From positions 57,854,218-57,918,217 of the forward strand of contig NC_057725.1 of NCBI RefSeq assembly GCF_004010195.1: DNA of 64,000 nt, written 5' to 3'. The DNA is from Chiloscyllium plagiosum (taxonomy: Eukaryota). Below, piece after piece: positions 386 through 58,416 of this stretch. The position numbers and the translations under genes were made by a program. The notes under the pieces were generated by a model that worked only from the letters and a program-made list of their open reading frames with translations, did no database searches and was not told where the DNA came from. Within the stretch, counting starts at the first letter, position 1. The number at the start of each line of letters is the position of its first letter.

Positions 386-712
386 ATTTCTCCAGCTTCC
401 TCATTTCCCCTCCCCCCATCTTTTCTCAGTCCCAACCCTCGGACTCAGCACCGCCTTCTTGACCTGCAATCTTCTTTCCGATCTCTCCGCCCCCAACCCC
501 TCTCCAGCCTATCACCCTCACCTTAACCTCCTTCCATTTATCGCATTCCCTACGCCCCTCCCCCAAGCCCCTCCTCCCTACCTTTTATCTTAGCCTGCTT
601 GGCACACCCTCCTCATTCCTGAAGGAGGGCTTATGCCCGAAATGTCGATTCTCCTGTTCCTTTGATGCTGCCTGACCTGCTGCGCTTTTCCAGCAACACA
701 TTTTTCAGCTCT
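386..712 (+). mobile_element. Penelope-like element 3' region / pseudo-LTR, family A
   Basis: A pyrimidine-rich tract is followed by CCTGAAGGAGGGCTTATGCCCGAAATGTCGATTCTCC...GCTGCCTGACCTGCTGCGCTTTTCCAGCAACACATTTT, the same unit seen at 2116, 4180, 8121, 26449 and 49394. Confidence 0.8.
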
Positions 713-1327
713 GTCACTTTAAGAGGCTGCCATAGAGATGGTTGCCAAGAGGAGCTGGTCAGAAGGCCTGTCTCGGTGATCTGAGACCCTGGTGCAGTTT
801 TAGAAAAAGCTGTCAGGCCCTCATTCCCCAGCTACACCACCTATTCCCTGTTTCTCCCCCATACCCACCCTCATATCCCCATGCCATCTGCATTTAATCT
901 TGTACCACTTATACCATCTCTGTTGTCACTTAATTTGACCATGCCTTCTCAATTGTCACTCATCTAGTATCCACTGCAGGCAGACCACAGGAGACACATG
1001 GAGATGAAAAGAAACTAACCATCTAATAGAGATACAAAATTGATACAGAACAAAAATAAATCGCATTCATGAAACCCATTTTAGGTATTAAGAACCCTCA
1101 AGTTCTAAAACAAGCAAACCTCCAACTGATAACCAAATCAGTAACAGCTAATCCTTCAAAAACCTTTTAAGATTTTCAATTAGAAGGTGAACTCAGCTTC
1201 CCCTGTCCCCCACCTTCACCCACGTTGTGAGATGTGCTTTGGAGATTTACTCAGTCAAATGGTCAAAAAGCACTTAGCTCTAATAACAGCCATTGGTGCT
1301 GAAACTGTAGGAGCTGATGGTATTTTT

Positions 1328-1413
1328 AGAGTCATAGAGATGTACAGCACTGAAACAGGCCCTTTGCTCGAACTCGTCCATGCCGACCAGATATTCCAAA
1401 CTAATCTAGTCCA
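1328..1413 (-). mobile_element. CR1/HER1 LINE extreme 3' tail fragment
   Basis: AGAGTCATAGAGATGTACAGCAC..AAACAGGCCC, matching the tail at 19412 and 63200. Confidence 0.75.
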
Positions 1414-2115
1414 AATACAGCTCAAGATTGTTGGAACTCGTCACAGTCATGAAAATGTTAATAAGATTCTCACCTGATAAAATCCAGTTATTAACTAACA
1501 CTTCAAGGCACTGCTCATTGGAGGGAGAGAATTCTTTTTCAATAATGTGTTAAGCTAAGTATGACATAAATGTAACACAAACCTTTCTTGATTGTGCTAT
1601 AAACAGAAGCGGCAGGAGGTATTTGGCATTTCTTAAAAATTCAACTAACCTCATGGCATAAATTTGGTCACACAGATTTCAAAGGTCGAGGAACAAGTCA
1701 TCTGAATGATTTAGAACTTCTGATGTATGCATTACTCAGAATTAATTTTCTTAGACTAATTCAATTACATATTACAAAAGAGACTTGATTTGGCAGGAAA
1801 ATGCCTGGTTTTAGCACACTTGCAAGAAATGGGCACATAGCCTTCTCCTTACATTCAAAATATAGAAGTATCAAATGTAAATAGATGATAAAATGAATGA
1901 TAAATGTTATAAGTGGATCATTCTTTCATGCAGCCTATGCCTAACAACAGGTCCTTGGCTCATTGTCTGCTAATTTTGTCAGTGGTAGTTGGTCACTGCC
2001 TTTTTGATTCAGAGGCAGGGCAAGGAGGCAAGCATTCATCTACCTCAGCCAGAATAGGGATCCAACCCATACCATTGGCACTATTCTAGACAACATGCCA
2101 GCCATGAAGCCAACT

Positions 2116-2275
2116 GAGTCAAGAGTGTGTTGCTGGAAAAGCACAGCATGTCAGACAGTGTCCGAGGAGCAGGAGAATCGATGTTTCGGGCAAAAGCCCT
2201 TCATCAGGAAAGAGGCTTGTGATTCGAGGGGGTGGAGAGATAAATGGGAGGGGGTGGGGCTGGTCGGAGGTGGTG
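2116..2275 (-). mobile_element. Penelope-like pseudo-LTR, family A
   Basis: GTGTTGCTGGAAAAGCACAGC...GGAGAATCGATGTTTCGGGCAAAAGCCCTTCATCAGGAA followed by a purine-rich tract. Confidence 0.8.
2180..2207 (-). ncRNA. Minimal hammerhead ribozyme motif (family A)
   Basis: Minus strand reads CUGAUGA-A-GGGC-UUUU-GCCC-GAAA-CA-UC. The core is intact; the helix III palindrome ACGU has decayed to ACAU. Confidence 0.65.
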
Positions 2276-2899
2276 GTGGAGTAAGCCAATTGAGCTTATT
2301 AGCCCCAGTATGAGGTAGGAAAAGAAAGATATTGACTTCAGACACCCCCCCCCCCCTCACCTCCCAAGCTCTGAATTATTTATGTGGCTGTGGTGTTTAC
2401 ATTAGTCAACAGTGTCAGGTTTGCACCAGTATGAGTCCAGCTGCATAGGTCTGAACGTGACACTGAAAAACATCTCATCAAACCAATACTTCAATAAATC
2501 TGGCATTCTCAAGCCATTAAAACTCTCAGAACACGCAGTTGAGAATCGCAGTCGGGCACGCCCCAAGTAAAATTGTGGGAATTTTGGACACGTTTCACAG
2601 CTAGCCTCAGAAGAGGCAACATATTATTGAAAGCTGTAGTATTGAAGATTTTTAGGACATTAAGGGAAATACTGTACTCAAGTGCCAATTTTATTGTCCA
2701 TATTAAAGTCTGTCATCAGAACATTACATAATGTAGTTTCAGAATACCTTTTAAAGAAATTCTGGCATATGAATTCTGACTGCATTGCAATGAGGCAATT
2801 GAAGCAGTGCCACTTTGCAAATCCGGGAGAGAAAAAAATATTTCACACATCTAAGACAGCTCTACAGATTTGGTGCATGTTTCCAGTATCCTAGGATTT

Positions 2900-3375
2900 C
2901 TCAAATTGGGCACAGAGCACAAGAGCAAGCAAGTTATGTTACACGTTTGTTTAAAAACTGATCCAGCCTCAATTGGAATACTGCATCAAATTCAAGGCGT
3001 CAATTCAAGAAAGACGTGAAAGCATTAGAGAGAATGCAATAAAGTTTTACCAGAAGGGTTTCAGGGATAAAGAAATTCAGTTACACTGAAAAATTGGAGA
3101 AGTTATGAGTGCTTTTCTTGGAGAATGTTGGAATGAATTTGACAGAGGTATTCAAAATAACATGGAAGCTGGACGGAGTAGATGGGGGAGAAAATCTGAA
3201 ATATATTGCCTGCGTGCACAGTGGAAGCAAGTTGAGACATTCAAAACTAAATTATTAGCTAAAAAGCAAGTATATGCAGATTTATAGGAGAAGGTGAGGG
3301 AATGGTACGAGGTGAACTGCTCATTTGGAGAGCCAGTGCAACCAACATAGAAATGGCCTCCTTCAATGCTACAAC
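2900..3375 (+). mobile_element. Old CR1 LINE 3' fragment
   Basis: Degenerate match to the CR1 ORF2 C-terminus (LEYCIKF...KDVKALER) and 3' UTR. Confidence 0.6.
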
Positions 3376-4179
3376 AATTCTCTTCCTCTGTTACTTAAGA
3401 TTCTGGAATTTCACATAAGTGCTGTTCATCTAATGTGAGACGCTCTTGCTTTACAATCTACACCAATTGATCAATACTAAGTGTTTAAAAACTTCAGATC
3501 ATGATATTTAAGCTAATCTTATTCTGACCTTCAAGATTATTTATGTCTTCTCTACCAATTTTTGACTTGTGGTTCAAGGCCCTTGAAATTGCCAAAATTG
3601 AGTCTGTTTGAACTCACAACCTATTTCAAATGCTAACTTCTAGATCACACCTGTTGTGATTCATGCCTTGGCAGCCAAAATTTCATTTGCTAAAATGTGA
3701 AGGCAGGACTTCTGCACCTGCGATCTACCCCACTTCTTTCTTAATCTAAGGCCTCCGGAGTCAGATGGGCTCTACAAAAGCCCAGCCCATTGTTCCTGGA
3801 CTGAGGAGGAAAGAAACATCAGGCAGGATTCATTACCACCAGCTAGTAGACCATCCTGCAAAGTACATGGGTAAACATCACGTTCTAGGATGCGTGTCCT
3901 CTACAATTGATTACTATGCTAATATGCACTTCAACCAATATACTTGGCCTGAAGTGGGACTACCACAACTTCTCTATTGTTAAATCCACTTTCTAGAAAC
4001 TTGGTTTCCCTTCTTAAGCCAATCACTTCCTTCTTTCACCCAGTAAGAAGCAATCTTTCAAAGTTCCCCTTCTGCTCCTGATCTTTCTCATTACATTGCA
4101 ATTTCTCCACTTTAGTGAACAGTGCAATTCACTCATAAGATCTGCCTGAGCTGGAGACCTGAACATTACAACTGCCTAG

Positions 4180-4304
4180 GAGAAAGTGAGGACTGCAGAT
4201 GCTGGAGATCAGTCGAGAGGGTGGTGCTGGAAAAGCACAGCAGGTCAGGCAGCATCCAAGGAGCAGGAGAATCGACATCTCGGGCATAAGCCCTTCATCA
4301 GGAA
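4180..4304 (-). mobile_element. Solo Penelope-like pseudo-LTR, family A, with TSD
   Basis: GAGAAAGTGAGGACTGCAGATGCTGG...AAGCCCTTCATCAGGAA, flanked by CAACTGCCTAG (4169-4179) and CAACTGACTAG (4305-4315). Confidence 0.85.
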
Positions 4305-4364
4305 CAACTGACTAGTCCATTACATCATCTAGCCAACAACTCCTTGACCCTTCTCAGTCATTAA

Positions 4365-4640: not shown

Positions 4641-4643
4641 TGT

Positions 4644-4957
4644 GGGCGGCACGGTGGCTCAGTGGTTAGCACTGCTGCCTCACAGTGTCAGAGACCTGGG
4701 TTCAATTCCTTCCTCAGGCAACTGTCTGTGTGGAGTTTGCACATTCTCCCCGTGTCTGCCCGGGTTTCGTCCGGGTGCTCTAGTTTCCTCCCACAGTCCA
4801 AAAATGTGCAGGTTAGGTGAATTGGCCATGCTAAGTTGCCTGTAGTGTTAGGTGAAAGGGTAAATGGGTCTGGGTGGGATGCGCTTCGGTGGGTCGGTGT
4901 GGACTTGTTGGGCCGAAGGGCCTGTTTCCCCACTGTAAGCAATCTAATCTAATCTAA
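4644..4957 (+). mobile_element. HE1-type tRNA-derived V-SINE
   Basis: tRNA head with A box TGGCTCAGTGG and B box GGTTCAATTCC, V-domain TGTGGAGTTTGCACATTCTCCCCGTGTCTGC, CR1-like tail GGCCGAAGGGCCTGTTTCC and (AATCT)n. Confidence 0.9.
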
Positions 4958-5074: not shown

Positions 5075-5510
5075 TTGAGTTCCTCAGAAAGGGTATGGAG
5101 GAGTTTTATCTGGATGTTACAGCTGATGATGGATTCCAAGCTGTGCCAAGAGGTTGAAAGTCTAGGTCTGATCTTTTTGCAACAGAGAGGATCGAGATGT
5201 AACCTAATAGAGATTTCACATTGAAAGATATTGATAGAGTAAATGGAGATAAACCACCCCCACTCTCCAATGGTTAAAGATTAGAGAGTTAAAACAGTGG
5301 TAAACTATCGAGCGGAGGGGTGGGGGAAATTATTTTAACTCAGACACTTGCTGAGATCTGGTTTGAAAAGTGGTGGAAGCTTGTTCCATAAGAACTTTCA
5401 AAAGTAAATTGTGTGCAGGTATTTAAGAAACAAAGTACGGATGAGTCAAGGCTAGACATGATGTTTCTTTCTTAGAGGTAGTTCAGACTTGTTGGGTTGA
5501 ATGGCCTCAT
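5075..5510 (+). mobile_element. Old CR1 LINE 3' fragment
   Basis: Degenerate ERV.RSF..ML and ..RCNLIE.. region plus TGGGTTGAATGGCCTC tail. Confidence 0.55.
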
Positions 5511-5514
5511 CATT

Positions 5515-6420
5515 AGGGTGTAGGTTTGCTCGCTGAGCTGTAGGTTTGATATCCAGACGTTTCATTACCTGGCTAGGTAACATCATCAGTGGCGGCCTCC
5601 AAGTGAAGCGAAACTGTTGTCTCCTGCTTTCTATTTATATCTTTCTCCTGGATGGGGTTCCTGGGGTTTGTGGTGATGTCAATTCCTGTTTGTTTTCTGA
5701 GGGGTTGATAAATGGTATCTAGATCTATGTGTTTGTTTATGGAGTTGTAGTTGGAGTGCCAGGCCTCTAGGAATTCTCTGGCATGTCTTTGCTTAGCCTG
5801 TCCCAGGATAGATGTGTTGCCCCAGTCGAATGGGTGTTTTTTTTTAGCCGTGTGTAGGGCTATGAGGGAGAGAGGGTCATGGCTTTTTGTGGCTAGCTGT
5901 GTTCGTGTATCCTGGTGGCTAACTTTCTTCCTGTTTGTCCTACGTAGTGTTTGTGGCAGTTCTTATATGGAATTTTGTAGATGACGTTGGTTTTGTCCAT
6001 GGGTTGTACTTTTAAGTTTGTTAGTTTTTGTTTGAGAGTGTTGGTGGGTTTGTGTGCTACTAGGATTCCGAGGGGTCTTAGTAGTCTGGCTGTCATTTCT
6101 GAAACTTCTTTGATGTATGGTAAGGTGGTTAGGGTTTCTGGCTGTGTTTGGTCTGCTTGTCATGGTTTGTTCTTGAGGAATCTGCGCACTGTATTTTTTG
6201 AGTATCCGTTCTTCTTGAATACGTTGTATAGGTGGTTCTCCTCTGTTTTCTGAAGTTCATCTGTGCTGCAGTGTGTGGTGGCTCGTTGGAATAGTGTTCT
6301 GATGCAGCTTCGTTTGTGTGTGTTGGGATGGTTGCTGGTGTAGTTAAGTATTTGGTCAGTGTTTGTCGGTTTTGTTTGTCGGTTTTCTGTATACATAGGT
6401 TTGTAGTTCTCCGTTGTCCT
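5515..6420 (-). mobile_element. Penelope-like retroelement 3' part: RT C-terminus, GIY-YIG endonuclease and pseudo-LTR (family D), frameshifted
   Basis: Minus-strand peptides KPTNTDQILNYTSNHPNTHKRSCIRTLFQRATTHCS (PLE thumb region) and NVIYKIPYKNCHKHYVGQTGRKLATRIHEH (GIY-YIG). Confidence 0.92.
5553..5592 (-). ncRNA. Minimal hammerhead ribozyme motif (family D)
   Basis: Minus strand reads CCA-CUGAUGA-U-GUUACCU-AGCC-AGGUAAU-GAAA-CG-UC-UGG. All core nucleotides are present, with a 7-bp helix II, ACGU palindrome and 3-bp helix I. Confidence 0.8.
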
Positions 6421-7519
6421 TTCTTTCATCATGTGCTTTAAGTTTCTATTTTTTCATGGTTCTATAGTATTGCATCTCCAGGAGTGTTTTATACAGATTA
6501 GATGCTTCCTGAAGCTTCTTTAAGAAAACAGCATATGACACACATAAACCCTTGCAGAGGGAACGGTCATATATCCACGCAGATGAGCCAACTCACAATG
6601 TGAGCAGCCAAGCAACATTCCAGCAAGGAAATCAAAATTGAATTGAATAAAGAAAAGGTGAATAATTCAACAGGAGCAGTTTTTACCCCTGGGTTTAATT
6701 TGCCTCTACCACACACATATATCAACATATCTCAGTCGTTTATGGTGCTTGCATTTCGTTTTTCATTCTGAAATTGCCCACTAGCCATTCAAATCAAATT
6801 CACCTGCACATTATTAAATTGTGCAAAATATGTATTTTGTTCTGGGAGAGAAGTGATGTGTGAAAACATTTCGTTTTTTTTTTAGTAATTTAGTTCAGGT
6901 TCACACTTCCGTGTAGGAACCCTTGAGGCAGCAGTTACATTCACTCAAAGAGGTTTGTAAAGAGTTCAGGTTAAGGGTTTGCAAATTTACATTTCTCTCA
7001 AATCCTAGACAGCCATTTATCTTTTCAGTATGCAGGACCATAAAGCTTCACAATAGCAATTAAGTGAAGCATTGACGCATTAATAAACTGATGGTCCCAC
7101 TCCTGGAATGGACTGAAATTTGTACAAAATCCTTTAGAAATGCCAGTTGCTTTTTGTCTGCAGTGGTGGTTTTGAAATTATTTACATTTTCAAAGCCCCT
7201 TCAGATGGATGTCCTTTACACCAACAATAAATACTGTACAGCCGAGCACTGCAATCCATTTGATAGAATTTTAAAAATTAAATAGAACCTCAGGTGAAAG
7301 AAGTTCTTTTTAAAAAAATGGTTAAATCTGAAGAACAAAAGCCGGTAGGTGGGGATGACATTATGGCTGAAAATAGCAGGCAAGAAGATTAAATAAATCC
7401 AATGATGCTAATTAGCTGATACCAAGCTTGGACCTTTGTTTTAAAAAGGGTACATGTAGAAACAAGGTAAGACTGATGGAAATGCCATGAATTTCAGATC
7501 CTGGGGAGAACTGAGACAT

Positions 7520-7627
7520 TCCTGAAACGTCAATTCTTCTGCTCCTCGGATGCTGCCTGGCCTGCTGTGCTTTTCCAGCACCACCCTCTCGACTCTGATC
7601 TCCAGCATCTGCAGTGCTCACTTTCCC
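7520..7627 (+). mobile_element. Penelope-like pseudo-LTR fragment, family A
   Basis: GAAACGTCAATTCTTCTGCTCCTCGGATGCTGCCTGGCCTGCTGTGCTTTTCCAGCACC...CTCCAGCATCTGCAGTGCTCACTTTC. Confidence 0.8.
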
Positions 7628-8120
7628 CAAGACTGAGATAGAGTCAATCCTAAGCTTGATACTGTCAGGAAGTGTGAAGAAAGATTTCGAAAGCAAACAT
7701 CAATCCAGGAGACAATCATATTGCAAGGCATCCTCTGATATAACTTGACACTAGAATCTTCCATTGAGTATTCCAGTAAGTGATTCACACTGGTGTTCTG
7801 GACTGGGCAGTTACCAGCAAACAGCAACCAAATGTATTTAAAATGAGGTGCCAACTCTTCTTGTTGGCAAAATTGCTTCCCAGGCTGCCCTGTGGATTAG
7901 GTGAGTGAGGAAGCTTGGTGGATGGCCCATTCCTGTTGAAGCTTTACTCCTCGACAGCATGAGCTGAGGATCCATACCTTGAGGTATGTCATCCGCTCAG
8001 TAACAGTCTCTGAATTAATGGTCCATTTGTAGACGTTTTGAAAGCTTCCGTAAAATTTATTTTCCATCTTTTAACTAATTTATCATTAAACACACTTATC
8101 CTTGACTCCTTTCTCCCAAA

Positions 8121-8341
8121 GGAGAAGGTGTGACTGCAGATTCTGGAGATCAGAGTCTAACAGGGTGGTGCTACAACAGGTCAGGCAGCATCTGAGGAGC
8201 AGGAGATTCGACCTTTCAAGCATAAGCCCTTCATCAGGAATTAGCTTATTCCTGATGAATGGCTTTTGCCCGAAACACCGACTGTCCTGCTCCGCAGATG
8301 CTGCCTGACCTGTTGTGCTTTTCCAACACCACATTCTCGAT
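8121..8341. mobile_element. Inverted-repeat dimer of family A pseudo-LTR with 14-bp TSD
   Basis: Two opposed arms meet near 8245; TCCTTTCTCCCAAA at 8107-8120 and 8342-8355. Confidence 0.85.
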
Positions 8342-8544
8342 TCCTTTCTCCCAAACCCTATCACCCTGGGTTCCCTCGCAACCCTCTCCTTCCCCCAACT
8401 TTGCACACACCACCACAGTGTTAATCACAGCTTTACCCACAATCATATCATCCCTGGCTCTCCACTCGAGATCGGCTCCTCCCCTCCCACCCTGGCAAGC
8501 CAAACATTATACAATGTTCAGCATGATTTGCATCTCCTCAGATA

Positions 8545-11402: not shown

Positions 11403-11541
11403 TAGCAAAATACCACAGATGCTGAAAATCTGAAACAAACACAGAGAATGTTGGAGAAACTTAGCAGGAAACTTAGCAACTTAGCATTTGTGGAGACAGA
11501 AACTGAGTTAACCTTTTGTGTCTGCATGTCTTCTTCAGAAC
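11403..11541 (-). mobile_element. Degenerate Penelope-like pseudo-LTR, family C
   Basis: CAGATGCTGAAAATCTGAAACAAACACAGAGAATGTTGG...GAGTTAACCTTTT...TTCTTCAGAAC. Confidence 0.6.
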
Positions 11542-11823
11542 ACTGATTACATACTTGGTTTTATATTAAAACCAATCAAAGCTGAAAATGATTCACATTC
11601 TGTGATGATTTTGATAGGCAGGAACAATAATTTTTCTTTCTGGTCTAATTGTTCATTGCCAGTATTTTGTGTGGCATTTACCGCATTTGCATAGCTACCT
11701 TTCAACCTTTCTCCATTGAATTTGGCTACATAACAGGAAGGAAAATACAACAGCCGTGTTCCAGTAATCATCATGATAAGGATCTGGAAGCTTTTGGATG
11801 GAGCCATTGTTATTTAATAGCAA

Positions 11824-12020
11824 CAAAAACAGAAACTGCTGGAAAAGCTCAGTCGGTCGGGCAGCATCTGTGAAGAGAAATCAGAGTTAACGTTTCGCGT
11901 CCGGTGACCCTTCCTCAGAAACTTTCTCTCTTCACAGATGCCGCCAGATCTGCTGAGCTTTTCCAGTAACTTCTGCTTTTGTTTCTGATTTACAGCATCC
12001 GCAGTTCTTTTGGGTTGTAT
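11824..12020. mobile_element. Inverted-repeat dimer of family C pseudo-LTR
   Basis: Arms CAGAAACTGCTGGAAAAGCTCAG...CTGTGAAGAGA and TCTCTTCACAG...CTGAGCTTTTCCAG; TATTTAATAGCAA (11811-11823) and TATTTAATTGCAA (12025-12037) form a TSD with one mismatch. Confidence 0.8.
11889..11918 (-). ncRNA. Minimal hammerhead ribozyme motif (family C)
   Basis: Minus strand reads CUGAGGA-A-GGGUC-ACCG-GACGC-GAAA-CG-UU, with one mismatch in helix II. Confidence 0.7.
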
Positions 12021-17681: not shown

Positions 17682-18125
17682 GAGGGGCAACTATTTATTG
17701 CACAGAGAGTGGTTTGGGTATTGAATGAACTTCCAGAGGAAGTGGTGGAAGTGGGTACAGTTACAATGCTTAAAAGACATTTAGATAAGTACATGATTAG
17801 AAGGTTTAAAATCACATAACACCGGGTTACAGTCTAACAGGTTTATTCAGAGGCAGCTAGCTTTTGAGGTGCTGCTTCTTCATCAGGTGGTTGTGCAGTG
17901 CTTTGAAAGCTCGTGCTTCCAATAAACCTGTTGGACTATAACTTACTGTTGTGTAGTTTTTAACTTTGTCCACCCCAGTCTAACACCGGCACCTCCAAAT
18001 CATGAAGAGGAAAGGTTTGGAGGGATATGGGCCAAGCATAGGCAGGCGGCACTAGTTTAGCTTGGCATTATGATTGGCATGGACTGGTTGGACCGAAGGG
18101 TCTGTTTCCATACTGTATGACCCAC
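17682..18125 (+). mobile_element. HER1/CR1 3' fragment interrupted by a PLE dimer
   Basis: GGGGCAAC..CACAGAGAGTGG...GGACCGAAGGGTCTGTTTCCATACTGTATGA. Confidence 0.8.
17806..18003. mobile_element. Inverted-repeat dimer of family B pseudo-LTR
   Basis: AAAATCACATAACACCGGGTTACAGTCTAACAGGTTTATT...TTCATCAGG and GAAAGCTCGTGCTTCCAATAAACCTGTTGGACTATAAC...CCCCAGTCTAACACCGGCACCTCC. Confidence 0.8.
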
Positions 18126-19742: not shown

Positions 19743-20769
19743 CACCCTCCTCAAATCAAAAATCAGATCACCCAGGTAGTTCCTCAGAAACAAGATTGGA
19801 GGAACCAGGAAAGTACTGGACCCTGTGTTCTTCACTTGAGAGTAAAAATCTATGCCTTAATTCAATTTCTGCTCACACAAAAATTTCTACTACAGCTGCA
19901 TCCAGTACACAAATGTCTGCCTGGTTATTTATCTAAGTTTCCAATGAGCTACCTGTCCTGTGTCCCCAGTGATAATTGCTAGCTAAGTGCAACTACTGAT
20001 CTGATTTAACAGGCATTCTGTTATCATACAATTTGCCAGCCACATTTTATGATACTTTGCAAAACTGTGGAATCAGTGAGATAACTGAACAGACAAATGG
20101 TTTTCAAGAGAGATTGAAGAGTAATGAGAAACAGGAACTGTGCTTGTGCTGTTAGACTGTTGGCTAAGGACACAAACATTTACCTGACCTGCTGTGCTTT
20201 TCCAGCACCACACTTTTTGACTATAAACATTCACCGCCAACTCCCGAAAACCACCAACCTCCCATCTCAGGTACTTGGAGGCCAAGATATATGTTAGAAT
20301 ATTCAGAAGACATACAATCATAATGCATAGCTGCCCAAATCAGATTCACTGAATCCATAAATTAACAAGACCATATAGATGTGGCCATGCCTTCAAAATG
20401 AGGATGGCATTTGCTCTTGGCAAGAAACTGAGCATGGAGTCTTTTATCATGGGGATGTTGTTGCACTGCAGATACCACCTAACTCTATCTGACCAGGAAA
20501 GTTTCTTACTTAATGCTCAGCACATTTAACTGATTATCAACCTACCTGACCGAGATGTGACTCAACTTCTACTACCCCTCAAGCTGAAACCCAAGCTTTC
20601 AACCCAGAGGTACGGCCATTACCACTGTAGCAAAGGACCTCCCAGTCAGTTCCCGTTTCAACCCTATTTGATAAATGCATTCAGTTGTTGGACTTACCTG
20701 ACGTCATCATAAAATCTTACACAACTCTTTGAAAGTGGTCGATTGTCACATCAAACCTCATTTAAATTA

Positions 20770-26206: not shown

Positions 26207-26742
26207 CATAGAGTTATACAACAGAACTTTAGGACCAATTCATCCATGTTGACCAGATGTCCTAAATTAATCTAGTCTCATTTGCCAGGATTTGGCCCAT
26301 ATCTCTCTGAATCCTTCCTGTTCTTATACCCATCTAAATACCTTTTTAATGTTGTAATTGTACCTGCCACGTCCTCTGGCAACTCATTCCAGACAAGCAC
26401 CACCCTCTGCGTGAAACATTTTGCCACACAGGTCACTTTTAAATCTTTGAGGAGAAAGTCAGGACTGCAGATGCTGGAGATCAGAGCTGAAAATGCATTG
26501 CTGGAAAAGCGCAGCAGGTCAGGCAGCATCCAGGGAACAGGAGAATCGACGTTTCGGGCATAAGGGCTTATGCCCGAAACGTCGATTCTCCTGTTCCCTG
26601 GATGCTGCCTGACCTGCTGCGCTTTTCCAGCAACACATTTTCAACTTTTAAATCTTTCCCCACTCACCTTACAACCAATGCCCTCTAGTTTTGGACGCCT
26701 CTACCCTGGGAAAAATACTTTAGCTATTCACCCTGTCCATGC
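26207..26742 (-). mobile_element. HER1/CR1 3' fragment interrupted by a PLE dimer
   Basis: Minus peptide FTQRVVLVWNELPEDV..TLKRYLDGY; the LINE is collinear on both sides of the insertion. Confidence 0.85.
26449..26643. mobile_element. Young inverted-repeat dimer of family A pseudo-LTR with 14-bp TSD
   Basis: Near-perfect 80-bp arms centred at about 26564; ACTTTTAAATCTTT at 26435-26448 and 26644-26657. Confidence 0.92.
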
Positions 26743-27579
26743 AGTACCGTTCGAAGAATATTACAACCCAACTAAGCCGGACATTATCCGAGCTCATTCT
26801 GGGCAACACAAAGTCTTCTACAGGGAAAAAATAAAATTGATATAATTTGCTGAGCACTTTGAGTTTTATACAGGCACACTGCACCACAGCCATAACACGC
26901 TGAGAATGGGTTATATTGTCTAATTGTGACCCTTGCTGGGGAGGGACTCCTACATGCAGGAGCTGCATGGGCTCAGCAATGGGAACTGCCAGTACTGCAG
27001 GGAAGACAGCAGGTGTGAGGAAACTCCGGCTTTGGGTCTAGGGCGTTTGGAAAGTTCGGGAGCGGGGGGAGGCAGGTCAGGGGATGGGTGTTTTGGAGCA
27101 GGTGGGTGGGAAGAAAGAGTGGAGGGATACCATTTTCAGAGCGGGTGCTCCTGAACCCTTTTATTTCTGCTATTTTATCAATTTTGTTACAAAAACAATC
27201 AGCTCGCTCTGACTCAGCTGCCAATGCCAACCGCAATTTGGCACGGGCAGTGTCTTTTTAGGGTCAATTGAGCTTTCAAACAAGATCTTGGTCATGAACC
27301 AGTTACATACATATGGAGTGCGGGCTGCCAATTTTGGCAGCCACCCAGCTGTATTATTCGGATGAGCTAGAGGGTGTTGGGAAGATGGTGAGCTAGCCAT
27401 CTTGCCTGGATTACATTATGTGTTCACCAACTGCAAAGAGGCACATAATATCCAGCCCTATATTTTGTTAACTCTATAAGACTCTTCTCATCCAGTCAGA
27501 AGCTGGCTACTGTTGCACACACTGGATCATATTAGCACCTAAGGAACCTACACACTTAAAAAACAATCTGATACACACC

Positions 27580-27766
27580 AAAAGGACTGCGGATGCTGGA
27601 AATCAGAAACAAGAACAGAATTTGCTGGAAAAGCTCAGCAACTCTGGCAGCATCTGCAGAGAGTCATCAGTTAACATTTTGAGTCCAGTGAAATGTTCAG
27701 TCCGAGTTCGCTCTGCAGATGCTGCCAGACCTGCTGAATTTCTCCAGCAATTTCCATTTTTGTTTG
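27580..27766. mobile_element. Inverted-repeat dimer of family C pseudo-LTR
   Basis: TTGCTGGAAAAGCTCAGCAACTCTGGCAGCATCTGCAGAG and CTCTGCAGATGCTGCCAGACCTGCTGAATTTCTCCAGCAA. Confidence 0.8.
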
Positions 27767-31714: not shown

Positions 31715-32595
31715 TTGGATAAATGTAAGGTATTGTATTTTGGTAAAACAAACAAGAGAGGTACTTACACAGTTAATGATCAGGCCCATGGGCAGTGTTG
31801 TAGATACAGAGACCTAGGGGTTCAGGTGTATAGTTCTTTGAAAGTTTCATAATAGGCAGACAGAGTGGTTAAGAAGGCATTGAGCATGCTTGCCTTCATT
31901 GCTCAGTCCACTGAGTATGGGAGTCGAGAGTGTGGTGCTGGAAAAGCATCCAAGGAGCAGGGAAATTGATGTTTCGAGCAAAAGCCCTTCGTCAGGGACC
32001 ATTGAGTGTGGGAGTAGGGACTTCATGGTGAGAGTGTACAGGATGTTGGTGAGGCCACTTTTGGAGTACTGTGTCCAGTTCTGGTCACTCTGTTATAGGA
32101 AGGTAATAGTAAATTGAAGAGAATTCAGAAGACATTTACCAGGATGTTGTTGGAACTGGGGGGTTTGAGATATAAGAGAGTTTGGATTAGCTAGGCCTTG
32201 TTTCTTTCACTGGAAGTTGAAGGGTGACTTTATAGAGGTTTAAAAAATCATTAGGGACATGGACAAGGTATTTGCAAAGGTGTACTACCTTGGGTAGGGG
32301 GCGTTCAAAATGAGAGGTCATAATCTTAAGGTGAGAGGAGAAAGATTTAACAGGGACCTAAGGGGCAACATTTTCACACAGAGGGTGGTTTGCATGTGGA
32401 AATGAATTGCCTAAGGAAGTGGTAGATACAGGTACAGTTACAACATTGAAAAGACAATTGGATGAAAGACATTAACATGAAAGATTCAGAGGGATCTGAG
32501 CCAAATACAGGCAAATAGGACTAGTTTAGCTTGGGAAACTTGGTTGCCAGGGATCAGTTGGACCGAAGGGATCGGTTTTCATGTTGTATGATTCT
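31715..32595 (+). mobile_element. HER1/CR1 LINE 3' portion with nested PLE fragment
   Basis: VYRMLVRPLLEYCVQFWS; tail GGACCGAAGGGATCGGTTTTCATGTTGTATGATTCTA. Confidence 0.85.
31925..31998 (-). mobile_element. Deleted family A pseudo-LTR with about 17-bp TSD
   Basis: Flanked by CCACTGAGTATGGGAGT (31908-31924) and CCATTGAGTGTGGGAGT (31999-32015). Confidence 0.75.
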
Positions 32596-43414: not shown

Positions 43415-43682
43415 CAAGAGCAAATTACTGCAGATGCTGGAATCTGCACTGAAAAAAACAAATGCCAGAACCCCACCAACCTCCAGATACATCGTATCAT
43501 CCGTCGTCATGTCCGCCACCTCCAAACGGACCCCACCACCAGGGATATATTCCCTCCCCTCCCCTATCAGCGTTCCGAAAAGACCACTCCCTCCGTGACT
43601 CCCTCGTCAGGTTCACACCCCCCACCAACCCAATCTTCACTCCCGGCACCTTCCCCTGCAACCGCAAGCAATGCAAAACTTA
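43415..43682 (+). mobile_element. Penelope-like fragment: short inverted pseudo-LTR end joined to the RT/GIY-YIG linker
   Basis: PTNLQIHRIIRRHVRHLQTDPTTRDIF, then by frameshift PSPPLSAFRKDHSLRDSLV..PGTFPCNRKQCKT. Confidence 0.8.
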
Positions 43683-44399
43683 TCTGTGTAGTCAGAAGTC
43701 TAGGATCTATTCTACTCTTTACTCTTAACCTTAAACTTTACTCTTACAACTTATATCACGCAGTTTAGAACACCTGACAAAGATCTTTGCAAACACTGCT
43801 GAATGAGAATGCAATGCTGGAGTAAACTTCAGTTCAATGTCAAAAGTGACACACTCTGAACTTAGACTCACTCTTCACACTAGAGTAAAGCATTATAAGG
43901 CAGAATGTGGATGTTAATGCAGTACTGGACATCATTCATCCTTAGCGAGTGTGCGCTTATGAGACACAAAGGTACAATGTGCTTTTGCCCTCATAGAAAT
44001 TCACAGTCATGAATGACAACATAAAATGGCCATACATGTGGAAAATGAGTGAAGGAAAGGTCTGATTAGAAGGTGCTCACATTAACTTTGATATTAGTAA
44101 TCTCCTCCCAAGATACAAAGTCTTGGCTGCATCATGAACATAAAGTTTTGAAGAATGTACAAAATTTGTTGCTATCCAGGATACTTCTCAGAGATGAGCA
44201 TCTCTTGCTATTATAACTTTTACTCTCTTTGGCACATGTCAACAGATTGTTTAACTCTGCACACATATTTTCAGATGCGCTATTTAATTTAACAATGCAT
44301 TTATACCCAGGCCATCTGCTGCCCCTCAAAGGACTTTCATTCTCTTTGCCTTCCCATTATGTCTAGGTGCACAGCACAGGTTGAAAGAGCATTATCTGC

Positions 44400-46575: not shown

Positions 46576-47255
46576 AAGTAGTGATTTCTACAACAATGTC
46601 TGAATGTAGTGCTGCAAACATATTATGAACCAATTCACTCCATTTAGCACAAGTATCTCTCCCTTGTTGTCACATTTCATCATTAAACAGTCTGCCTTGA
46701 CAGCATTATAAAACTCAATCCATGCAAATCTCAGTTGACAGTTAGAACTGGAAGTTCAATTTCTATGAATTTCAAGTTTCTTCCAAATTGAAGTGAATTT
46801 ACTATACGTGACTTAATTTTCCATTATTTTCATAGTTAGCACCCTTTCTCATTTACGGTGTATTTTACAGCTTTCCCATATTCTGGGTTGGAAAATTGGC
46901 TTGGTCTGGTTAACTTTGTCAAGAACAACATTGCTGACCTTTGATAATGTCTTGGGTTTGGTGTGGCTGGCAGGTGTGAAGTGTAAACGCAGAAGACATT
47001 TTCTGAGATTGTATTTCTTACTCTCTGGATTCAGTAGCTTCTTTACTCCTCTTCAAAACCAGGCACCATTTTATCATCAATGGTTATCTTTTAACATTAA
47101 CTCTGAACAGGATGGTTCAATGACTAACTACGGATCTCTGTTCTCTTACATGGCTGCGGGATTTTAATGACCAAGTCTGTGAAGGAACTCTCATGTAGCC
47201 ATAACAGCTGAATTGTTCTCCTCCTGTTTAAATGCAGGTTTACTATTCTTCAGTA

Positions 47256-47341
47256 GTTAAAAATCACACAGCATCAGGTTATAGTCCAAAAGGTTTATTT
47301 GGAAGCACTAGCTTTCAGAGTGATGCTCCTTCATCAGGTAG
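47256..47341 (-). mobile_element. Solo family B pseudo-LTR
   Basis: GTTAAAAATCACACAGCATCAGGTTATAGTCCAAAAGGTTTATTTGGAAGCACTAGCTTTC...; TCTTCAG on both flanks. Confidence 0.8.
47309..47337 (-). ncRNA. Minimal hammerhead ribozyme motif (family B)
   Basis: Minus strand reads CUGAUGA-A-GGAG-CAUCA-CUCU-GAAA-GC-UA, with an AGCU palindrome. Confidence 0.7.
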
Positions 47342-48204
47342 TCTTCAGATGAAATGTGGTTGGGTTGCGGGGGGTGGTAATTTTTCTAGGACCATGTAAT
47401 TAATTCCACTACAATGTTACACACAAATATTACAGTACTTTAAATAATATACTGATTTATATTATTTCAAAATAAACCAGAAATCAAAACAACTTGAGAA
47501 GAAGGTTTGTTTGGAGATTAGGCATGTTTCAGCACTGGTTCCTCAATTGCTGATACATGCCCTAGTGCACCAGTATATCCATGGACAGGAGGCTTATAGG
47601 TTTCATTTTACCGAATTTGGTTTATGTAGTTTCCACGATAAATGGTACAGAAAGTACAGTTTAGATCTCTGTGAGAAGTTCTGGGAATAGTGATAACACC
47701 ACATCAGATGTATGACTTACTGCTCCTTATGATTTTAGGTGTAAACTCTAAAGCCAGTTCAGAAACAACATAAACTAAGGAAATGTGCGGGCGTTGCAAG
47801 AAGCTGGAATTATGTCCATAAACAGCAGAGGGTACTAACTGAGCTTTGTGTAGAACTAACAGAATAGATGGAGGAAATTTAGGCACCAGTCACTTATGTC
47901 TGAATTCCCTAAATTTTAAGACTAAAATTTGGTAGTTTTGACACTGAGCTTTAAGAATGTTCTGAACCATGAGGCCGAAGCCATTAAATAACCTTTTAAA
48001 ATGGTGATCAGGATCCGATTACAGGATTTCAGCCCCACTCCCAGCATTGGCAGTTTTGAAGCTTCGAGCTGTTCTGACATCACCAGCCTCACTGCAAGAC
48101 CCTGACCAATTGACATGAAGCTGGGCTAACCTTGTGATTTTTGTCAGCTCAGTGGCACCATGAACCATTGGAAAAGTGTGCTCTTAAATCAGGAACCTTT
48201 TAAT

Positions 48205-49393: not shown

Positions 49394-49608
49394 CTTAAAA
49401 ATGTGTTGCTGGAAAAGCGCAGCAGGTCAGGCAGCATCCAAGGAGAAGGAGAATCGCCGTTTTGGGCATAAGCCTATTCTTCCTGAAGAAGGGCTTATGC
49501 CCAAAACGTCGATTCTCCTTCTCCTTGGATGCTGCCTGACCTGCTGCGCTTTTCCAGCAACACATTTTTAAGCTCTGATCTCCAGCATCTGCTGTCCTCA
49601 CTTCTCCT
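49394..49608. mobile_element. Young inverted-repeat dimer of family A pseudo-LTR with 14-bp TSD, inside a short tRNA-SINE
   Basis: Near-perfect 80-bp arms; ATATATCATAATAT at 49380-49393 and 49609-49622. Confidence 0.92.
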
Positions 49609-53150: not shown

Positions 53151-53309
53151 GCTACATTCTTGATATGAGAATTTAAATTGGATATGTATATTTTATACGT
53201 ATTTATTTTTTATGGTTCTCTAAACTACTCAAACCAATGACATTTTTGCTTTATTTTTTCTTATCTTCCTCCCCGGCTCCATCCCCAAATTGATACCTTC
53301 TGAAGATGA

Positions 53310-53589
53310 CATTCCCTACAGTGTGGAAATAGGCCATTTGGCCTAACAAGTCCACACTGACCCATTTCCCTCTGACTAATGCACCTAACACTATAGGTAA
53401 TTTTAGCATGGCCAATTCACCTGACACGCACATCTTTGGATTGTGGAAGGAAACCGGAGCACCCAGAGGAAACCCGCAGCAGACACAGGGAGAATGTGCA
53501 AACTCCACATAGATAGTTGCCTGTGGCGGGAATCAAAACCAGGTCCCTGGTGCTTGAGGCAGCAGCGCTAACCACTGAGCCACCGTGCC
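53310..53589 (-). mobile_element. HE1 SINE
   Basis: GGAGAATGTGCAAACTCCAC...GCGCTAACCACTGAGCCACCGTGCC. Confidence 0.88.
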
Positions 53590-53819: not shown

Positions 53820-54610
53820 AACAGAAAGATAGAAATTGCTAGGGAAACTAAGCAGTTCTGGCGGCATCAGTGGAGAGACATCAGAGACAAACTTTTGGGT
53901 TCAGTGACCCTTCTTCAGAACTGTAGCTAGACAAAGGTCGGTTTATATACACTACTGAAGATGGGGTGGGCGAAGTAGAGGGCGATAATGTAAAGGAGTA
54001 ATTGATGAGTGGAAATAGAGCCCAGATGGAGAGAAAAAGTTAGGCAGACAAAGGGATTAATAATGTAAGCCAAGGAGAAAGAAGAGCTGATAGTGGGCAA
54101 AGTGAGTAGGGGAGAATGGGTTGGCTGTGCTGAAAGCAAACCACACCATCATTGGGCCTGGGATGTGGGGATGGGGAAAGGACTTGGAAGAAGCAGTCCA
54201 GGCCCAAAAATTATTGACCTTAATATTGAGTCCTGAAGGCTGCAAGGTGCCCCACTGGCAAACGAGATTTGGTTCTTCCAGCCTGCATTGAACCTCGGTG
54301 CTGCAGGCCCGATATAGAAATGCTGGCATAGGAACACAGTGGTGCACTGACGGACAGGCAACTGGAAGCCAGGTCATTTTTATGAACAGAATGTAGATAT
54401 TCTACAAAGCTGTCACCCAGCCTCCCAAAGTAAAGATCACATGGTGAGGGCTAGATTGAGTGCAGAGCAGGTAAACAGCCTCCTCATCTGGAATGTGTGA
54501 CAGGAGCCTTGGTGCCTGCTCTCTACAGATGCAGTCAGGCCTGCTGAGTTTCTCCAGCAACTTCTGTTACTGCTTCAGATTTCCAGCATCCACAGTTCTT
54601 TGTTTTATTT
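53820..54610 (-). mobile_element. Penelope-like element (family C): GIY-YIG C-terminal relic between opposed pseudo-LTRs
   Basis: Minus peptide QCRLEEPNLVCQWGTLQPSGLNIKVNNF (PLE C-terminus); pseudo-LTRs at about 53820-53922 and, inverted, 54518-54610. Confidence 0.8.
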
Positions 54611-55111: not shown

Positions 55112-56220
55112 TTAGAATCCCTACAATGTAGAAATGGGCCCTTCAGCCTAACAAGTGTGGACAAGTGTGAGGTGATACACTTTGGACGGAGTAATCGGAA
55201 TGCAAAGTACCAGGCTAATGGTAAGATTCTTGGGAGTGCAGATTAGCAGAGAGATCTCGATGTCCATGTACACAGATCCCTGAAAGATGCCACCTAGATT
55301 GACAGGGTTGTTAAGAAGGCATACAATGTTTTGGCCTTTATTAATAGAGGGATTGAGTTCCGGAACCAGGAGGTTATGCTGCAGCTGTACAAAGCTCTGG
55401 TACAGCCACACTAGGAGTATTGTGTACAGTTCTGGTCACCGCATTATAAGAAGGATGTGGAAGCTTTGGAAAGGGTGCAGAGGAGATTTACTAGGATGTT
55501 GCCTGGTATGGAAGGAATGTCTTACGAGGAAAGGCTGAGGACCTTGAGGCTGTCCTCGTTAGAGAGAAGGTTGAGATGAGGACCTTGAGGCTGTCCTCGT
55601 TAGAGAGAAGGTTGAGAGGTGACTTAATAGAGACATACAAGGTAATCAGAGGATTAGATAGGGTGGACAGGGAGAGCCTTTTTCCAAGTATGGGGAGGCA
55701 AACACGAGGGGACACAACTTTAAAGTGAGGGGAGATAGGTATAAGACAGATGTCAGAGGTAGTTTCTTTACTCTGAGAGTAGTAAGGGTATGGAATGCTT
55801 TGCCTGCAACGGTAGTAGATTCGCCAAGTTTAAGTGCATTTAAGTCGTCATTGGACAGGCATATGGACGTACATGAAATAGTGTAGGTGGGTTGGGCTTC
55901 AGATTAGTATGACAGGGCGGCGCAACATCGAGGGCTGAAGGGCCTGTATTGCAGGGTAATATTCTATGCTCTATGTTCTAAGTCCACACTGACCCTCTCT
56001 TATTTCTCTACATTTCCTCTGACTAATGCACCTAACACTATGGGCAATTTAGCATGGCCAACCCATCTAAGCTGCACATCTTTGGACTGTGGGAGGAAAC
56101 CCACACAGACACGGGGAGAATGTATAAACTTTACACAGACAGTTGCCCGAGGCTGGAATCAAATCTGGGTCCCTGGCATTGTGAGGCAGTAGTGCTAACC
56201 ACTGAGCCACCGTGTTGCCC
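55112..56220 (-). mobile_element. HE1 SINE split by a CR1 insertion (parts about 55112-55156 and 55981-56220)
   Basis: CCTAACAAGT|...|AAGTCCACACTGACCC rejoins to the HE1 sequence seen at 53340-53365. Confidence 0.8.
55157..55979 (+). mobile_element. CR1 LINE 3' portion, (TCTATGT)n-tail family, with an internal 41-bp tandem duplication
   Basis: DKCEVIHFG...EYCVQFWSPHYKKDVEALERVQRRFTRMLPG; 55536-55576 is identical to 55577-55617. Confidence 0.9.
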
Positions 56221-56844
56221 GTCTCTTTGCCTGTCATGAATCAGGTTGATGTCCTCAGTGCTACCAGTGTGGCACTGTGTAGTTCTCAGAATTGACATTC
56301 CACTCTACTTTCTCTTTCTGGTTGACCCAGTATCTTGTTTCCATATTACTTTCTTTAAGTCAGCAAAAGTAAACTCTTCCTTCCACACCAGCCTTAAATT
56401 AGCAGAGCACTTTTCTTTGCTGCTACACAGTAATGTGGACAACAGATTGACAGTTACTATGTTGTCAAAAATATCCACAATGGAGTTGAAATGGGTGGTA
56501 AATCAGGCTACGATAAGCTGTGCGCTTGGTGAAAAGTTTGTATTTTTTTCATGTATGATGTCCCCTTTAAGGCTAAAGTGAAACTGGGGAGTATTCTGAA
56601 ACAGGGTTAATTAGTTCCCTGATTATGACATTGCTAGTTTCCAACAAATGCCCATGTGAAATTCAGAACACACATTTTGTGAGTGAAAGATCATAAGAGT
56701 TAGAAACAGGAATAGGTCAACTGGCCCATTGAGCCTGAACTTGATCAAAAGTTAAGCTACCAAAAGGTAATTGCAACATTGTCTGATCCCAGCTTGTCTG
56801 GTGACTGGCAGTTCAGAATTACATGTGAAAGGAAGTTCGTAACA

Positions 56845-57445
56845 AGATCATAAGATATATGAGTAAATGTGGGCCATTCCACTCATTGAGCCTGTTCTTT
56901 CATTCAGTAACATCATGGCTGATGCGGCTGTGGCCTTAACTCCTCTCCTGCACCTTCCCCATAACTTTTAACTTCTGTATCAATCAAAAATCTATCTAAC
57001 CCAGTGCCTAGAGCTATTTGTGGAAGAGAGCTCAAAAGACTAAAACCGTTTGAGAGAAGATATTTCTCATCTAAATATTAAATGGAAGATTCTCTATTTT
57101 GATCTGTACTCCCCAGTTCTAGACTCCCCAAGATAGGAAGAATCCTTGAAGTTTCTACTCTGAGAAGCTTCCTTACATGTTTCAAAAAGATCATGTCTCA
57201 CTTTTCCAACCCAATTAATCTTTCCTTATAAGTAAACCCCTTCAACCCAGGGTTAGGCCCAGTCAAGCTCCTCTAAAATGCTTCCCAAGCAATTATATCA
57301 TTCCCTATGTAATGAGAACAAAACTGTACACAATACTCAAAAATAAGTTGCAAAATTGCTCTGAACAGTTTCACAAAGCCTTCCTTACATTTATACGTCA
57401 TCCCCCGCACAATTAAGGTCAACGTTCTGCTTGCCTTCCTAACCA
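56845..57445 (-). mobile_element. Old CR1 LINE 3' portion
   Basis: Minus peptide IFEYCVQFCSHY; tail CATAAGATATATGAG..GGCCATTC. Confidence 0.7.
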
Positions 57446-57703
57446 CTCTGGAGTAACGAGACATCAGCAGAATGTATGAAATTAATTAAATTTACTAATA
57501 ATGTTAGTGCTACATGTTGACATAGTTGGGACTGAAAGGCAACAAATGTTTTACCAAAATATTAATAGAATATTTGTGTCATTTAAGCTGTAAATAAAGT
57601 TTATTTTTAATGGAAAACACTCAGGACTTAAAAAACAGTACTGGGAGTACTACCAATCCTATCACAGTTAAATCCCATACACACAATAAAATGGCTGCTT
57701 GGT

Positions 57704-58022
57704 GGGCGGCATGGTGGCACAGTGGTTAGCACTGCTGCCTCACAGCGCCAGAGACCCGGGTTCAATTCCCGCCTCAGGCGACTGACTGTGTGGAGTTTGC
57801 ACGTTCTCCCCGTGTCTGCGTGGGTTTCCTCCGGGTTCTCCGGTTTTCTCCCACCATCCAAAAGATGTGCAGGGTCAGGTGAATTGGCTATACTAAATTG
57901 CCCGTAGTGTTAGGTAAGGGGTAAATGTAGGGGTTTGGGTGGATTTCGCTTCGGCGGGTCGGTGTGGACTTGTTGGGCCGAAGGGCCTGTTTCCACACTG
58001 TAATCTAACCTAATCTAATCTA
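57704..58022 (+). mobile_element. HE1 SINE (young)
   Basis: GGGCGGCATGGTGGCACAGTGGTTAGC...GGTTCAATTCC...GGCCGAAGGGCCTGTTTCCACACTGTAATCTAACCTAATCTAATCTAA. Confidence 0.92.
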
Positions 58023-58065
58023 ACTTCTATGAAGCAAGCAATGCTCTCCATGAATGGATCAGATA

Positions 58066-58186
58066 GGAGAAAGTGAGGACTGCAGATGCTAGAGATCAGA
58101 GTCGAACAGTATGGTGTTGGAAAAGCCCAGCCGGTCAGGAAGGAGCAGGAGAGTCGACATTTCAGGTATAAGCCCTTCATCAGGAA
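58066..58186 (-). mobile_element. Solo family A pseudo-LTR
   Basis: GGAGAAAGTGAGGACTGCAGATGCTAGAGATCAGAGTCG...AAGCCCTTCATCAGGAA. Confidence 0.8.
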
Positions 58187-58207
58187 CAGATGTCTGTTTG
58201 ATGACAA

Positions 58208-58416
58208 AGTTAAAAATTACACAAAACCAGGTTATAGTCCAACAGATTTAGTTGGAAGCACTAGCTTTTGCAGCGCTGCTCCCTCAGGTGGTTGTGGTTA
58301 AAGAAGCAGCGCTCCGAAAGCTAGTACTTCTAATTAAACCTGTTGGACTATAGCCTGGTGTTGTGTGATTTTAAACTTTGTACACCCCAGTCCAACACCA
58401 GCATCTCCAAATCATT
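58208..58416. mobile_element. Inverted-repeat dimer of family B pseudo-LTR with 11-bp TSD
   Basis: Opposed arms centred at about 58295; TTTGATGACAA at 58197-58207 and 58417-58427. Confidence 0.88.

Follow-up and report, generated by a model that had tools for sequence, protein, structure and literature searches.

Terminal-repeat hammerhead ribozymes of four Penelope-like retroelement families in Chiloscyllium plagiosum: load, insertion anatomy and clues to cleavage

A stretch of 64,000 nucleotides from the 3.56-Gb genome of Chiloscyllium plagiosum (contig NC_057725.1, positions 57,854,218 to 57,918,217 of the forward strand; hereafter, the window) carries short terminal repeats which share the layout CUGANGA-N-hairpin-GAAA-NN-UH. 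What are these repeats, and does the ribozyme suggested by this layout cut its RNA in the living cell? The analysis confirmed that the motifs are minimal type I hammerheads located in the terminal repeats of four families of Penelope-like elements (PLEs), designated A, B, C and D. The motif itself belongs to an already known kind, the minimal hammerhead ribozyme (min-HHR) of metazoan PLEs, and what is added here is the size of the load together with two mechanistic clues, the 5′ edge of the inserted copies and their junctions with U6. A natural sample as large as this one bears on the question of whether the weak PLE ribozymes cut in vivo and serve the element; the genome indicates mostly uncut inserted templates, one probable RNA start base, and U6 junctions at the scissile bond. 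Positions below are given relative to C3, the first C of CUGA, unless they are window coordinates.

Hammerhead motif, parent elements and genomic load

The layout, first noticed in a sequence-only reading of the window, was present in all four families; the core forms the column majority in each of them and helix II pairs, so the possibility that the family consensus sequences lack either was not borne out. The strict descriptor, which asks for the core, at least 4 pairs in helix II and UH but not for helix I, matched 5 sites in the window, whereas 100 dinucleotide shuffles gave a mean of 0.05 (maximum 1); in 774,570 nt of genome sample it matched 60 sites, against 0–1 in 5 shuffles. The single extra base between positions 9 and 10.1 occurs in all 102 strict matches from the window and the samples together (A in 94, U in 8), the one-base form being that tried first by the search. 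Helix III had been described as a 4-nt palindrome, and 72 of the 102 matches do carry the 15.2–16.2 palindrome without loop 3 (ACGU in 51, AGCU in 21), while 25 of the other 30 have ACAU or AUGU, its CpG decay products. The helix III CG of family A (CG 98, CA 42, UG 30; n = 181) displays the pattern of CpG decay after insertion, and CpG cells are off the majority in 412 of 1,719 cases as against 60 of 1,736 for the non-CpG core cells. We infer that most genomic copies were dead on arrival and have been decaying mainly at CpG.

The pairing tables were built from copies picked by profile, without selection for pairing, and compensatory pairs within families uphold the claim that helix II is paired in each of them. 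Helix II of family A is paired in 165–168 of 175–182 copies per position; its pair 9-18 reads GC in 150 copies and AU in 12, and pair 9-20 of family C reads GC in 25, AU in 13, GU in 10 and AC in 2 (Fisher p 2e-4). G10.1–C11.1 is present as GC in 143/182 copies of A, 48/66 of B, 27/58 of C and 9/20 of D, the remainder being mostly GU. Helix I is short, with 2–4 pairs (in A, 3–4 bp including a mismatch), and one of its pairs is compensatory in B (CG 38, UA 8). The catalytic positions and the palindrome are all retained across families whose open reading frames (ORFs) are only 23–31% identical. Two points weaken this picture: the covariation tallies count copies and not independent events, and the minimum-free-energy folds of the consensus sequences recovered helix II in A, C and D, not in B, and the active hammerhead in none. 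Folding of monomers and dimers likewise did not give the active fold, which counts neither for nor against it. The Rfam scan returned no hammerhead family among its 6 matches (E up to 5), only chance microRNA matches on palindromes. Self-cleavage is predicted to need a dimer or the element protein; dimer cleavage of PLE hammerheads was reportedly treated by Lunse et al. in RNA Biol 14:1499.

The attribution to PLEs was corroborated by longer copies elsewhere in the genome, in which each repeat is preceded, on its 5′ side, by an ORF with Penelope-like reverse transcriptase (RT) and GIY-YIG endonuclease. Such ORF-linked loci are L031, L195 and L196 for A, L062 and L190 for B, L206–L217 (decayed copies only) for C, and L004, L198 and L204 together with window positions 5509–6427 for D. 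RVT_1 of Pfam exceeded the cut-off in 3 of the 4 ORFs tested, and the fourth has GIY-YIG just below it (22.2 of 22.6 bits); among the ORFs of the window, the D remnant gave no Pfam match and the RT matches belong to long interspersed elements (LINEs). The assignment to these families is thus supported by the ORF linkage, the match to the published PLE min-HHR, the compensatory pairs and the large load. The further claim that all four repeats are dissimilar does not hold, inasmuch as A and C, to judge by sequence, are sisters: their repeats are 78% identical over 72 nt of the 3′ part, and their ORFs are 37–48% identical over the longer matches. ORF identity is 31% between A and B, 23–25% between A and D, and 27% between B and D. 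A cysteine linker C-x4-C-x2-C lies between RT and endonuclease in A and B, with remnants in C, and is absent in D. A zinc-finger-like linker marks the Neptune and Nematis clades (PMC8557442), and, judged by the linker only, A, B and C would be Neptune/Nematis-like, while D appears Penelope/Poseidon-like, with a C-terminal GIY-YIG without the linker (L198, L204). Family D comprises several subfamilies with the helix II variants GUUACC, GUCACC and GUUGCC, each still paired.

Locus L190 of family B is near full length and a partial tandem, running from pseudo-long terminal repeat (pLTR) through hammerhead, tail, ATG and ORF to a second pLTR, with the ATG directly behind the tail; a partial tandem with a pLTR before the ORF was not seen for A, C or D among 20 long loci. 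Two further loci have unusual arrangements. In L060 (contig C10; 1592–1737 and 1501–1588) a B copy includes 155 nt of ORF start, immediately behind which comes a second stub from about 9 nt before CUGA, an arrangement that resembles a template jump at the 5′ end of the RNA. In L056 (contig C33) an A-type GIY-YIG ORF end is joined to a B-type pLTR, as a chimera or a nested insertion, and this locus was excluded from the B ORF definition.

The number of motifs in the window had been taken to imply a very large genomic load, and this proved correct. In 120 dispersed 10-kb stretches, taken from the large contigs at round-number positions (1,158,371 non-N bases, small scaffolds lying outside the sample), 378 family copies were found, i.e., 326/Mb (bootstrap 281–375), 14 stretches having none, along with 77 strict matches, i.e., 66/Mb (51–82). 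Scaled to 3.56 Gb, this gives an estimated ~1.2 million copies and ~240,000 descriptor matches. For coelacanth, a hammerhead load of ~4,000 has been published, and for Xenopus one of ~9,000 (Cervera and De la Pena 2014; PMC4209133); the comparison is not like for like, because the descriptor used here ignores helix I. About one intact-looking motif per 15 kb would swamp ribozyme searches in such genomes.

Anatomy of the insertions and position of their 5′ ends

The 479 copies from the window, its flanks and the dispersed sample are arranged as 110 head-to-head pairs, 1 tail-to-tail pair and 4 close same-strand neighbours, along with single copies. Exactly one long and one short 3′ end occur in 101 of the 110 head-to-head pairs, and the two fixed 3′ ends, ~35–40 nt apart, correspond to the known tail. 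A flank repeat of at least 7 nt accompanies 65 of the 110 pairs versus 3% of shuffled pairings. Behind the 3′ ends no sequence motif was apparent, only a mild A/T bias, and the typical stub measures 90–130 nt. The insertions are thus the published PLE insertion unit cut down to its ends, not a tandem retrozyme. The alternative that the stubs are non-autonomous retrozymes spreading via cut, circularised RNA deserved consideration, given that PLE pLTRs are the source of tandem retrozymes, which were also present in the only cartilaginous fish that was sampled (10.64898/2026.07.22.740005). The copy ends are, however, variable, matching the PLE tail signature, and the starts are not at the cut; of the 479 copies, just 4 are close same-strand neighbours that might represent head-to-tail tandem units, no dedicated search having been made for arrays in the rest of the genome. 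We therefore regard the retrozyme explanation as highly improbable and, for this sample, largely refuted. As direct tandems are nearly absent, the inserted stubs also give no layout for dimer cleavage in cis.

The 5′ ends of the copies pile up ahead of the core. They fall at −15..+5 in 201 of the 479 copies and within 3 nt of the cut in 15, and the truncation rate in A–C amounts to 0.046 per nt at −15..+5, compared with 0.0055 at +25..+35 and 0.0042 at −180..−61. Local alignment resolved 69 pairs of the first sample; the deeper arm passes the cut by at least 5 nt in 65 of them, and in 46 its end falls at −15..+5. Single copies ending at −15..+5 have a flank repeat in 31 of 90 cases versus 5% of controls, and because of this excess the ends at the core front are considered primary; they are physical ends, as the pairs and the target duplications show. 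As the 5′ ends of A–C pile up before the core and not at the cut, most inserted templates were uncut, and most stubs were likely copied from uncut RNA. In the literature searched, with subscription journals, Repbase and supplements (which may include sharks) outside the search, neither a 5′-end pile-up at the hammerhead nor a U6–PLE fusion is described. Divergence of upstream subfamilies was tried as the cause of the pile-up and rejected: a shared upstream flank was found in 0/36 single stubs of A, 0/5 of B and 0/18 of C, although two or three of the single stubs in this check appeared, by eye, to come from a divergent subfamily. A splice acceptor ahead of the hammerhead, as in D. virilis, was rejected as well, there being no conserved AG within 14 nt across the A subfamilies.

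Both the pairs and the pile-up could in principle arise if the cDNA folded back and primed itself at hairpins within or near the hammerhead. Self-priming was proposed for the palindromes of rotifer Penelope (PMC3846280), the A consensus can fold a small hairpin over the core, and the short arm is deeper than the long one in 37 pairs versus 20 (p 0.03). On the other hand, extra bases stand at the junction in 53 of 69 pairs, the direct joins are without microhomology in 7 of 16 cases and exceed 3 nt of it in 1 of 16, and the pile-up exists equally in single copies without an inverted arm (0.034 per nt). This origin of the pairs and the pile-up therefore appears distinctly unlikely to us.

The position of the edge is best defined in family A, where the breakpoint model for 164 copies assigned 35% to long copies, 17% to −4 (bootstrap 10–25), 0% to −5 and −6 (0–2), and 4, 7, 10 and 13% to positions −3 to 0. 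An edge modeled as one-sided in this manner is as expected for run-off at an RNA end, and the RNA probably began at the core front, at −4 in A. The initiator consensus is YYANWYY, and the sequence TCA(T/G)TT of A and C, whose A stands at −4, is initiator-like. An internal promoter with initiator and downstream promoter element has been described in D. virilis Penelope (PMC2377424).

A start site at the core front does not account smoothly for all observations. Family D has no pile-up (2/22 ends at −15..+5), the peak of B (56 copies) lies near −4 with an edge blurred from −9 to −4, and that of C (44 copies) lies near −2 with an edge at −5 to −2 and wide intervals. An extra G, as left by a cap, stands at 30 of 72 single copies versus 23.1 expected, an excess below significance (z 1.8) and suggestive only, and is depleted in the paired A arms (10 versus 17.2). 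In addition, helix I of A and C terminates on its outer side at −4 (the pair is A-U in 95/113 copies of A; 28/31 in C), so that structure and start site are inseparable at this base. The edge might accordingly be set by structure or processing, with a 5′-to-3′ nuclease or a protein footprint stopping at helix I, or with the endonuclease trimming new DNA at ATT, and the sequence ATT which A reads at −4..−2 is indeed a motif preferred by the anole PLE endonuclease (PMC11167929). This ATT is, however, absent in C and B, the 3–4-bp helix I of A with its mismatch makes a weak barrier, the ends of B reach −9 where its helix I ends at −3, and D, with the same fold, shows no pile-up. We consider a structural or processing origin of the edge unlikely.

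U6 junctions and the proposed insertion cycle

Hammerhead cleavage leaves a 5′-OH end. RtcB joins the cyclic phosphate of U6 to 5′-OH RNA (PMC6789731). A U6 search, which scores only its best candidates and is thus not a census, gave 48 scored matches; 6 of them, clustered on contig C25, were taken as true genes and excluded, and the 42 others represent 40 loci. In 4 of these 40 (L279, L296, L306 and L312) the U6 T-run passes directly into GAUU, which begins with G28 behind GUC, at the cut predicted for family A. Two of these loci, L296 and L306, consist of inverted pairs, so that the U6–A junctions number 6, all at the same base; among 261 ordinary A copies, just 3 begin at +27..+29. The junctions, as indirect evidence, suggest that the family A ribozyme sometimes cuts in vivo.

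Certain results weigh against the explanation favoured here. None of the 40 loci joins U6 to B, C or D, and most of the other U6 loci join unrelated repeats without a ribozyme; U6 fusion thus needs no ribozyme in general, and the evidence lies in the fixed position of the junction. RNA read starts showed no pile at the cut or at −4 in two read alignments of a single-cell polyA run, a library poorly suited to this purpose, the motif lying at the stretch edge in one alignment and in a divergent copy in the other, with family-derived reads lacking informative starts or ends. Among the remaining U6 loci, the abundant short interspersed element (SINE) mentioned below follows U6 in many; L291 and L295 continue, by eye, into the middle of the endonuclease region of family A and not into the repeat, and in L280 U6 is directly followed by a tRNA-like sequence (by eye).

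The fixed junction also bears on the proposal that the motif only resembles a hammerhead and never cuts, being instead a conserved element for protein binding or promoter function. Metazoan min-HHRs cleave very little in vitro (PMC4209133), hammerhead mutants leave in vitro insertion unaffected (PMC11167929), and 8 of 9 Xenopus dimers showed no cleavage, all of which would suit such an element. The exact coincidence of the U6 junction with the predicted scissile bond, seen in 4 separate loci, as well as the retention of catalytic positions and palindrome noted above across the divergent families, argues against it, and we hold it to be very unlikely.

Considering these results, we think it likely that the stubs are PLE terminal repeats copied from uncut RNA which began just ahead of the ribozyme, and that the ribozyme cuts a minority of the transcripts, as a dimer or with protein. 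According to the mechanism proposed, the element protein would nick the target DNA and start copying the RNA from either of two internal sites 55–95 nt behind the cut, as has been demonstrated in vitro for an anole PLE. If the site copy at the front of a transcript starting ~4 nt before CUGA is used, run-off after ~100 nt would yield a stub; if both target strands are primed, each from a different site, a palindromic pair would result; and priming in the 3′ repeat of a read-through transcript would yield the longer, randomly truncated copies. A ribozyme cut would remove the first 32 nt and leave a 5′-OH end joinable to U6. A bolder version, which we put forward tentatively and which may well be wrong, is that the stubs record the Penelope cycle itself: the transcript would start where helix I starts, with its first base; the uncut leader would be copied in the manner of a retroviral strong-stop, and the hammerhead would be a decapping switch in the germ line, gated by protein or dimerization, whose cut product becomes fused to U6 by RtcB.

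Copies in the window

More than 10 motif copies had been counted in the window; the profile search gave 26 family copies (A 13, B 5, C 7, D 1), and those at 8237 and 31995, both of which pass the descriptor, had been overlooked. The view that most cores are decayed is valid in the window, where 5 of the 26 pass the descriptor, and is weaker genome-wide, where the core is kept in 89 of 156 motif-spanning copies of A and 27 of 57 of B. Positions first assigned to minus-strand copies mark the cleavage end or its vicinity, C3 being actually at 2207, 4301, 58183, 17886, 47337, 11918 and 5589. Four copies (2180, 5553, 11889 and 47309, i.e., C3 at 2207, 5589, 11918 and 47337) had been regarded as keeping the core: the unpaired core bases are kept in all four, while core, helix II and palindrome occur together only at 5589 (D) and 47337 (B). 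The descriptor is passed without the palindrome at C3 2207, 8237 and 31995.

The only D copy, a 5′-truncated element on the minus strand (5509..6427), has the RT end and GIY-YIG ORF remnant at 5576–6427, 80–93% identical to the D ORFs (tblastn), followed by the hammerhead (C3 5589) with core, 7-bp helix II and ACGU palindrome all intact; it belongs to a young subfamily, being ~95% identical to its best matches.

Family A begins with a plus-strand copy at 421..702, which includes ~200 nt of upstream pLTR, a decayed core (CUGAAGG) and a short 3′ end, and a minus-strand copy at 2115..2265 (C3 2207), with core and helix II intact and the palindrome replaced by ACAU. Its stubs on the minus strand lie at 4179..4307 (starting just ahead of C3 4301; long tail; GAGA for GAAA), at 31921..31999 (starting at about −4; C3 31995; strict descriptor passed, palindrome lost) and at 58066..58187 (starting at about −4; C3 58183; helix II broken); a plus-strand stub at 7520..7628, with a long tail, is truncated within helix II. 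The head-to-head pair at 8121..8343 has C3 at 8237 on the minus strand, which passes the strict descriptor, and at 8252 on the plus strand, with a long and a short arm and the flank repeat CTTTCTCCCAAA. Another pair, at 26451..26646, is joined within helix II and flanked by the repeat TTTAAATCTTT, and a third, at 49400..49603, has C3 49483 on the plus strand, G12 lost, and the flank repeat TATATCATAATAT. The listing of 26564 and of plus-strand 58300 as motif copies is not sustained, as these truncated arms of inverted pairs contain no CUGANGA. Two plus-strand fragments complete the family, one at 20183..20214 with the 3′ box only, the other at 43469..43713, a piece of A-type ORF that includes the zinc-finger linker (FPC-x4-C-x2-) and has no terminal repeat.

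Family B is present as a head-to-head pair at 17800..18000 (C3 17886, minus strand; G12 lost), as a minus-strand stub at 47255..47343 (C3 47337), in which core and AGCU are intact and G-U replaces G10.1–C11.1, and as a pair at 58202..58412, the minus arm of which has a 3-nt core deletion and the plus arm of which is without CUGA. This last pair stands 14 nt from the A stub at 58066..58187 (together 58066–58412), and one of the two may have inserted next to the other or into its flank. Family C comprises a decayed minus-strand stub at 11406..11541 (C3 11538), a head-to-head pair at 11813..12018 (C3 11918, minus strand) which keeps the core bases and ACGU and fails the descriptor through a G-G mismatch in helix II, a pair at 27574..27765 with each arm truncated within the hammerhead, and an insertion on both strands at 53820..54604, the minus arm of which consists of pLTR and a remnant resembling the GIY-YIG end (C3 53918, decayed), with an inverted stub at 54519–54604.

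The window is repeat-rich and includes LINE RT remnants. A near full-length L1-type LINE with stops and frameshifts occupies 38410–42648 on the minus strand (ORF1-like coiled coil at 41806–42648, endonuclease at 40486–40893, RT at 38410–39684), and the remnant of another LINE with RT (Pfam RVT_1) lies at 21011–23066 on the same strand. Positions 1–182 are a GC-rich 18-nt tandem repeat of at least 7 units. Copies of an abundant 310-nt SINE, which we take to be of the shark HE1 type, are found at 4643–4950, 25029–25323, 53304–53588, 56011–56228 and 57703–58016.

Relation to known systems

The min-HHRs of metazoan PLE pLTRs (PMC4209133), known from the fish elements Xena, Poseidon and Neptune, have in common with those described here the core, the extra base between 9 and 10.1, G10.1, the palindromic 15.2–16.2 and the short helix I, as well as the presence of several families per genome, mostly as solo copies with some opposite-strand pairs. 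In its available part, that account names no cartilaginous fish and describes neither a 5′ pile-up nor a U6 fusion. The insertion unit of endonuclease-bearing PLEs (PMC8557442, PMC3846280) shares with the present one the 5′ truncation, the adjacent inverted copy, a tail of 30–40 bp at one end and the target-site duplication; it differs in that the units here are mostly the terminal 90–130 nt, with truncation fixed at the hammerhead front in A–C. Animal non-LTR retrozymes (10.64898/2026.07.22.740005) likewise possess a type I hammerhead, an origin from PLE pLTRs and many monomers, but are defined by tandem units, which are nearly absent here.

A further parallel is provided by PAc, a Poseidon of Anolis (PMC11167929), which has two internal RT start sites defining the tail, extends both target strands, uses uncut RNA as the main template and has its hammerhead at the pLTR–ORF junction. 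In vitro, uncut RNA was the dominant template of PAc and cleavage was protein-assisted, and that study found no RNA-seq read with its start or end at the cut (PMC11167929). The open frame of family D begins in the hammerhead, as in PAc, whereas the ATG of family B lies directly behind the tail and not in stem II as in PAc (PMC11167929). Finally, the U6 fusions resemble the U6/LINE-1 chimeric pseudogenes made via RtcB (PMC6789731) in combining a full or near-full U6 ending in a T-run with a 5′-truncated retroelement, and differ from them in having a PLE repeat as partner and in being joined at a single fixed base, the predicted cut.

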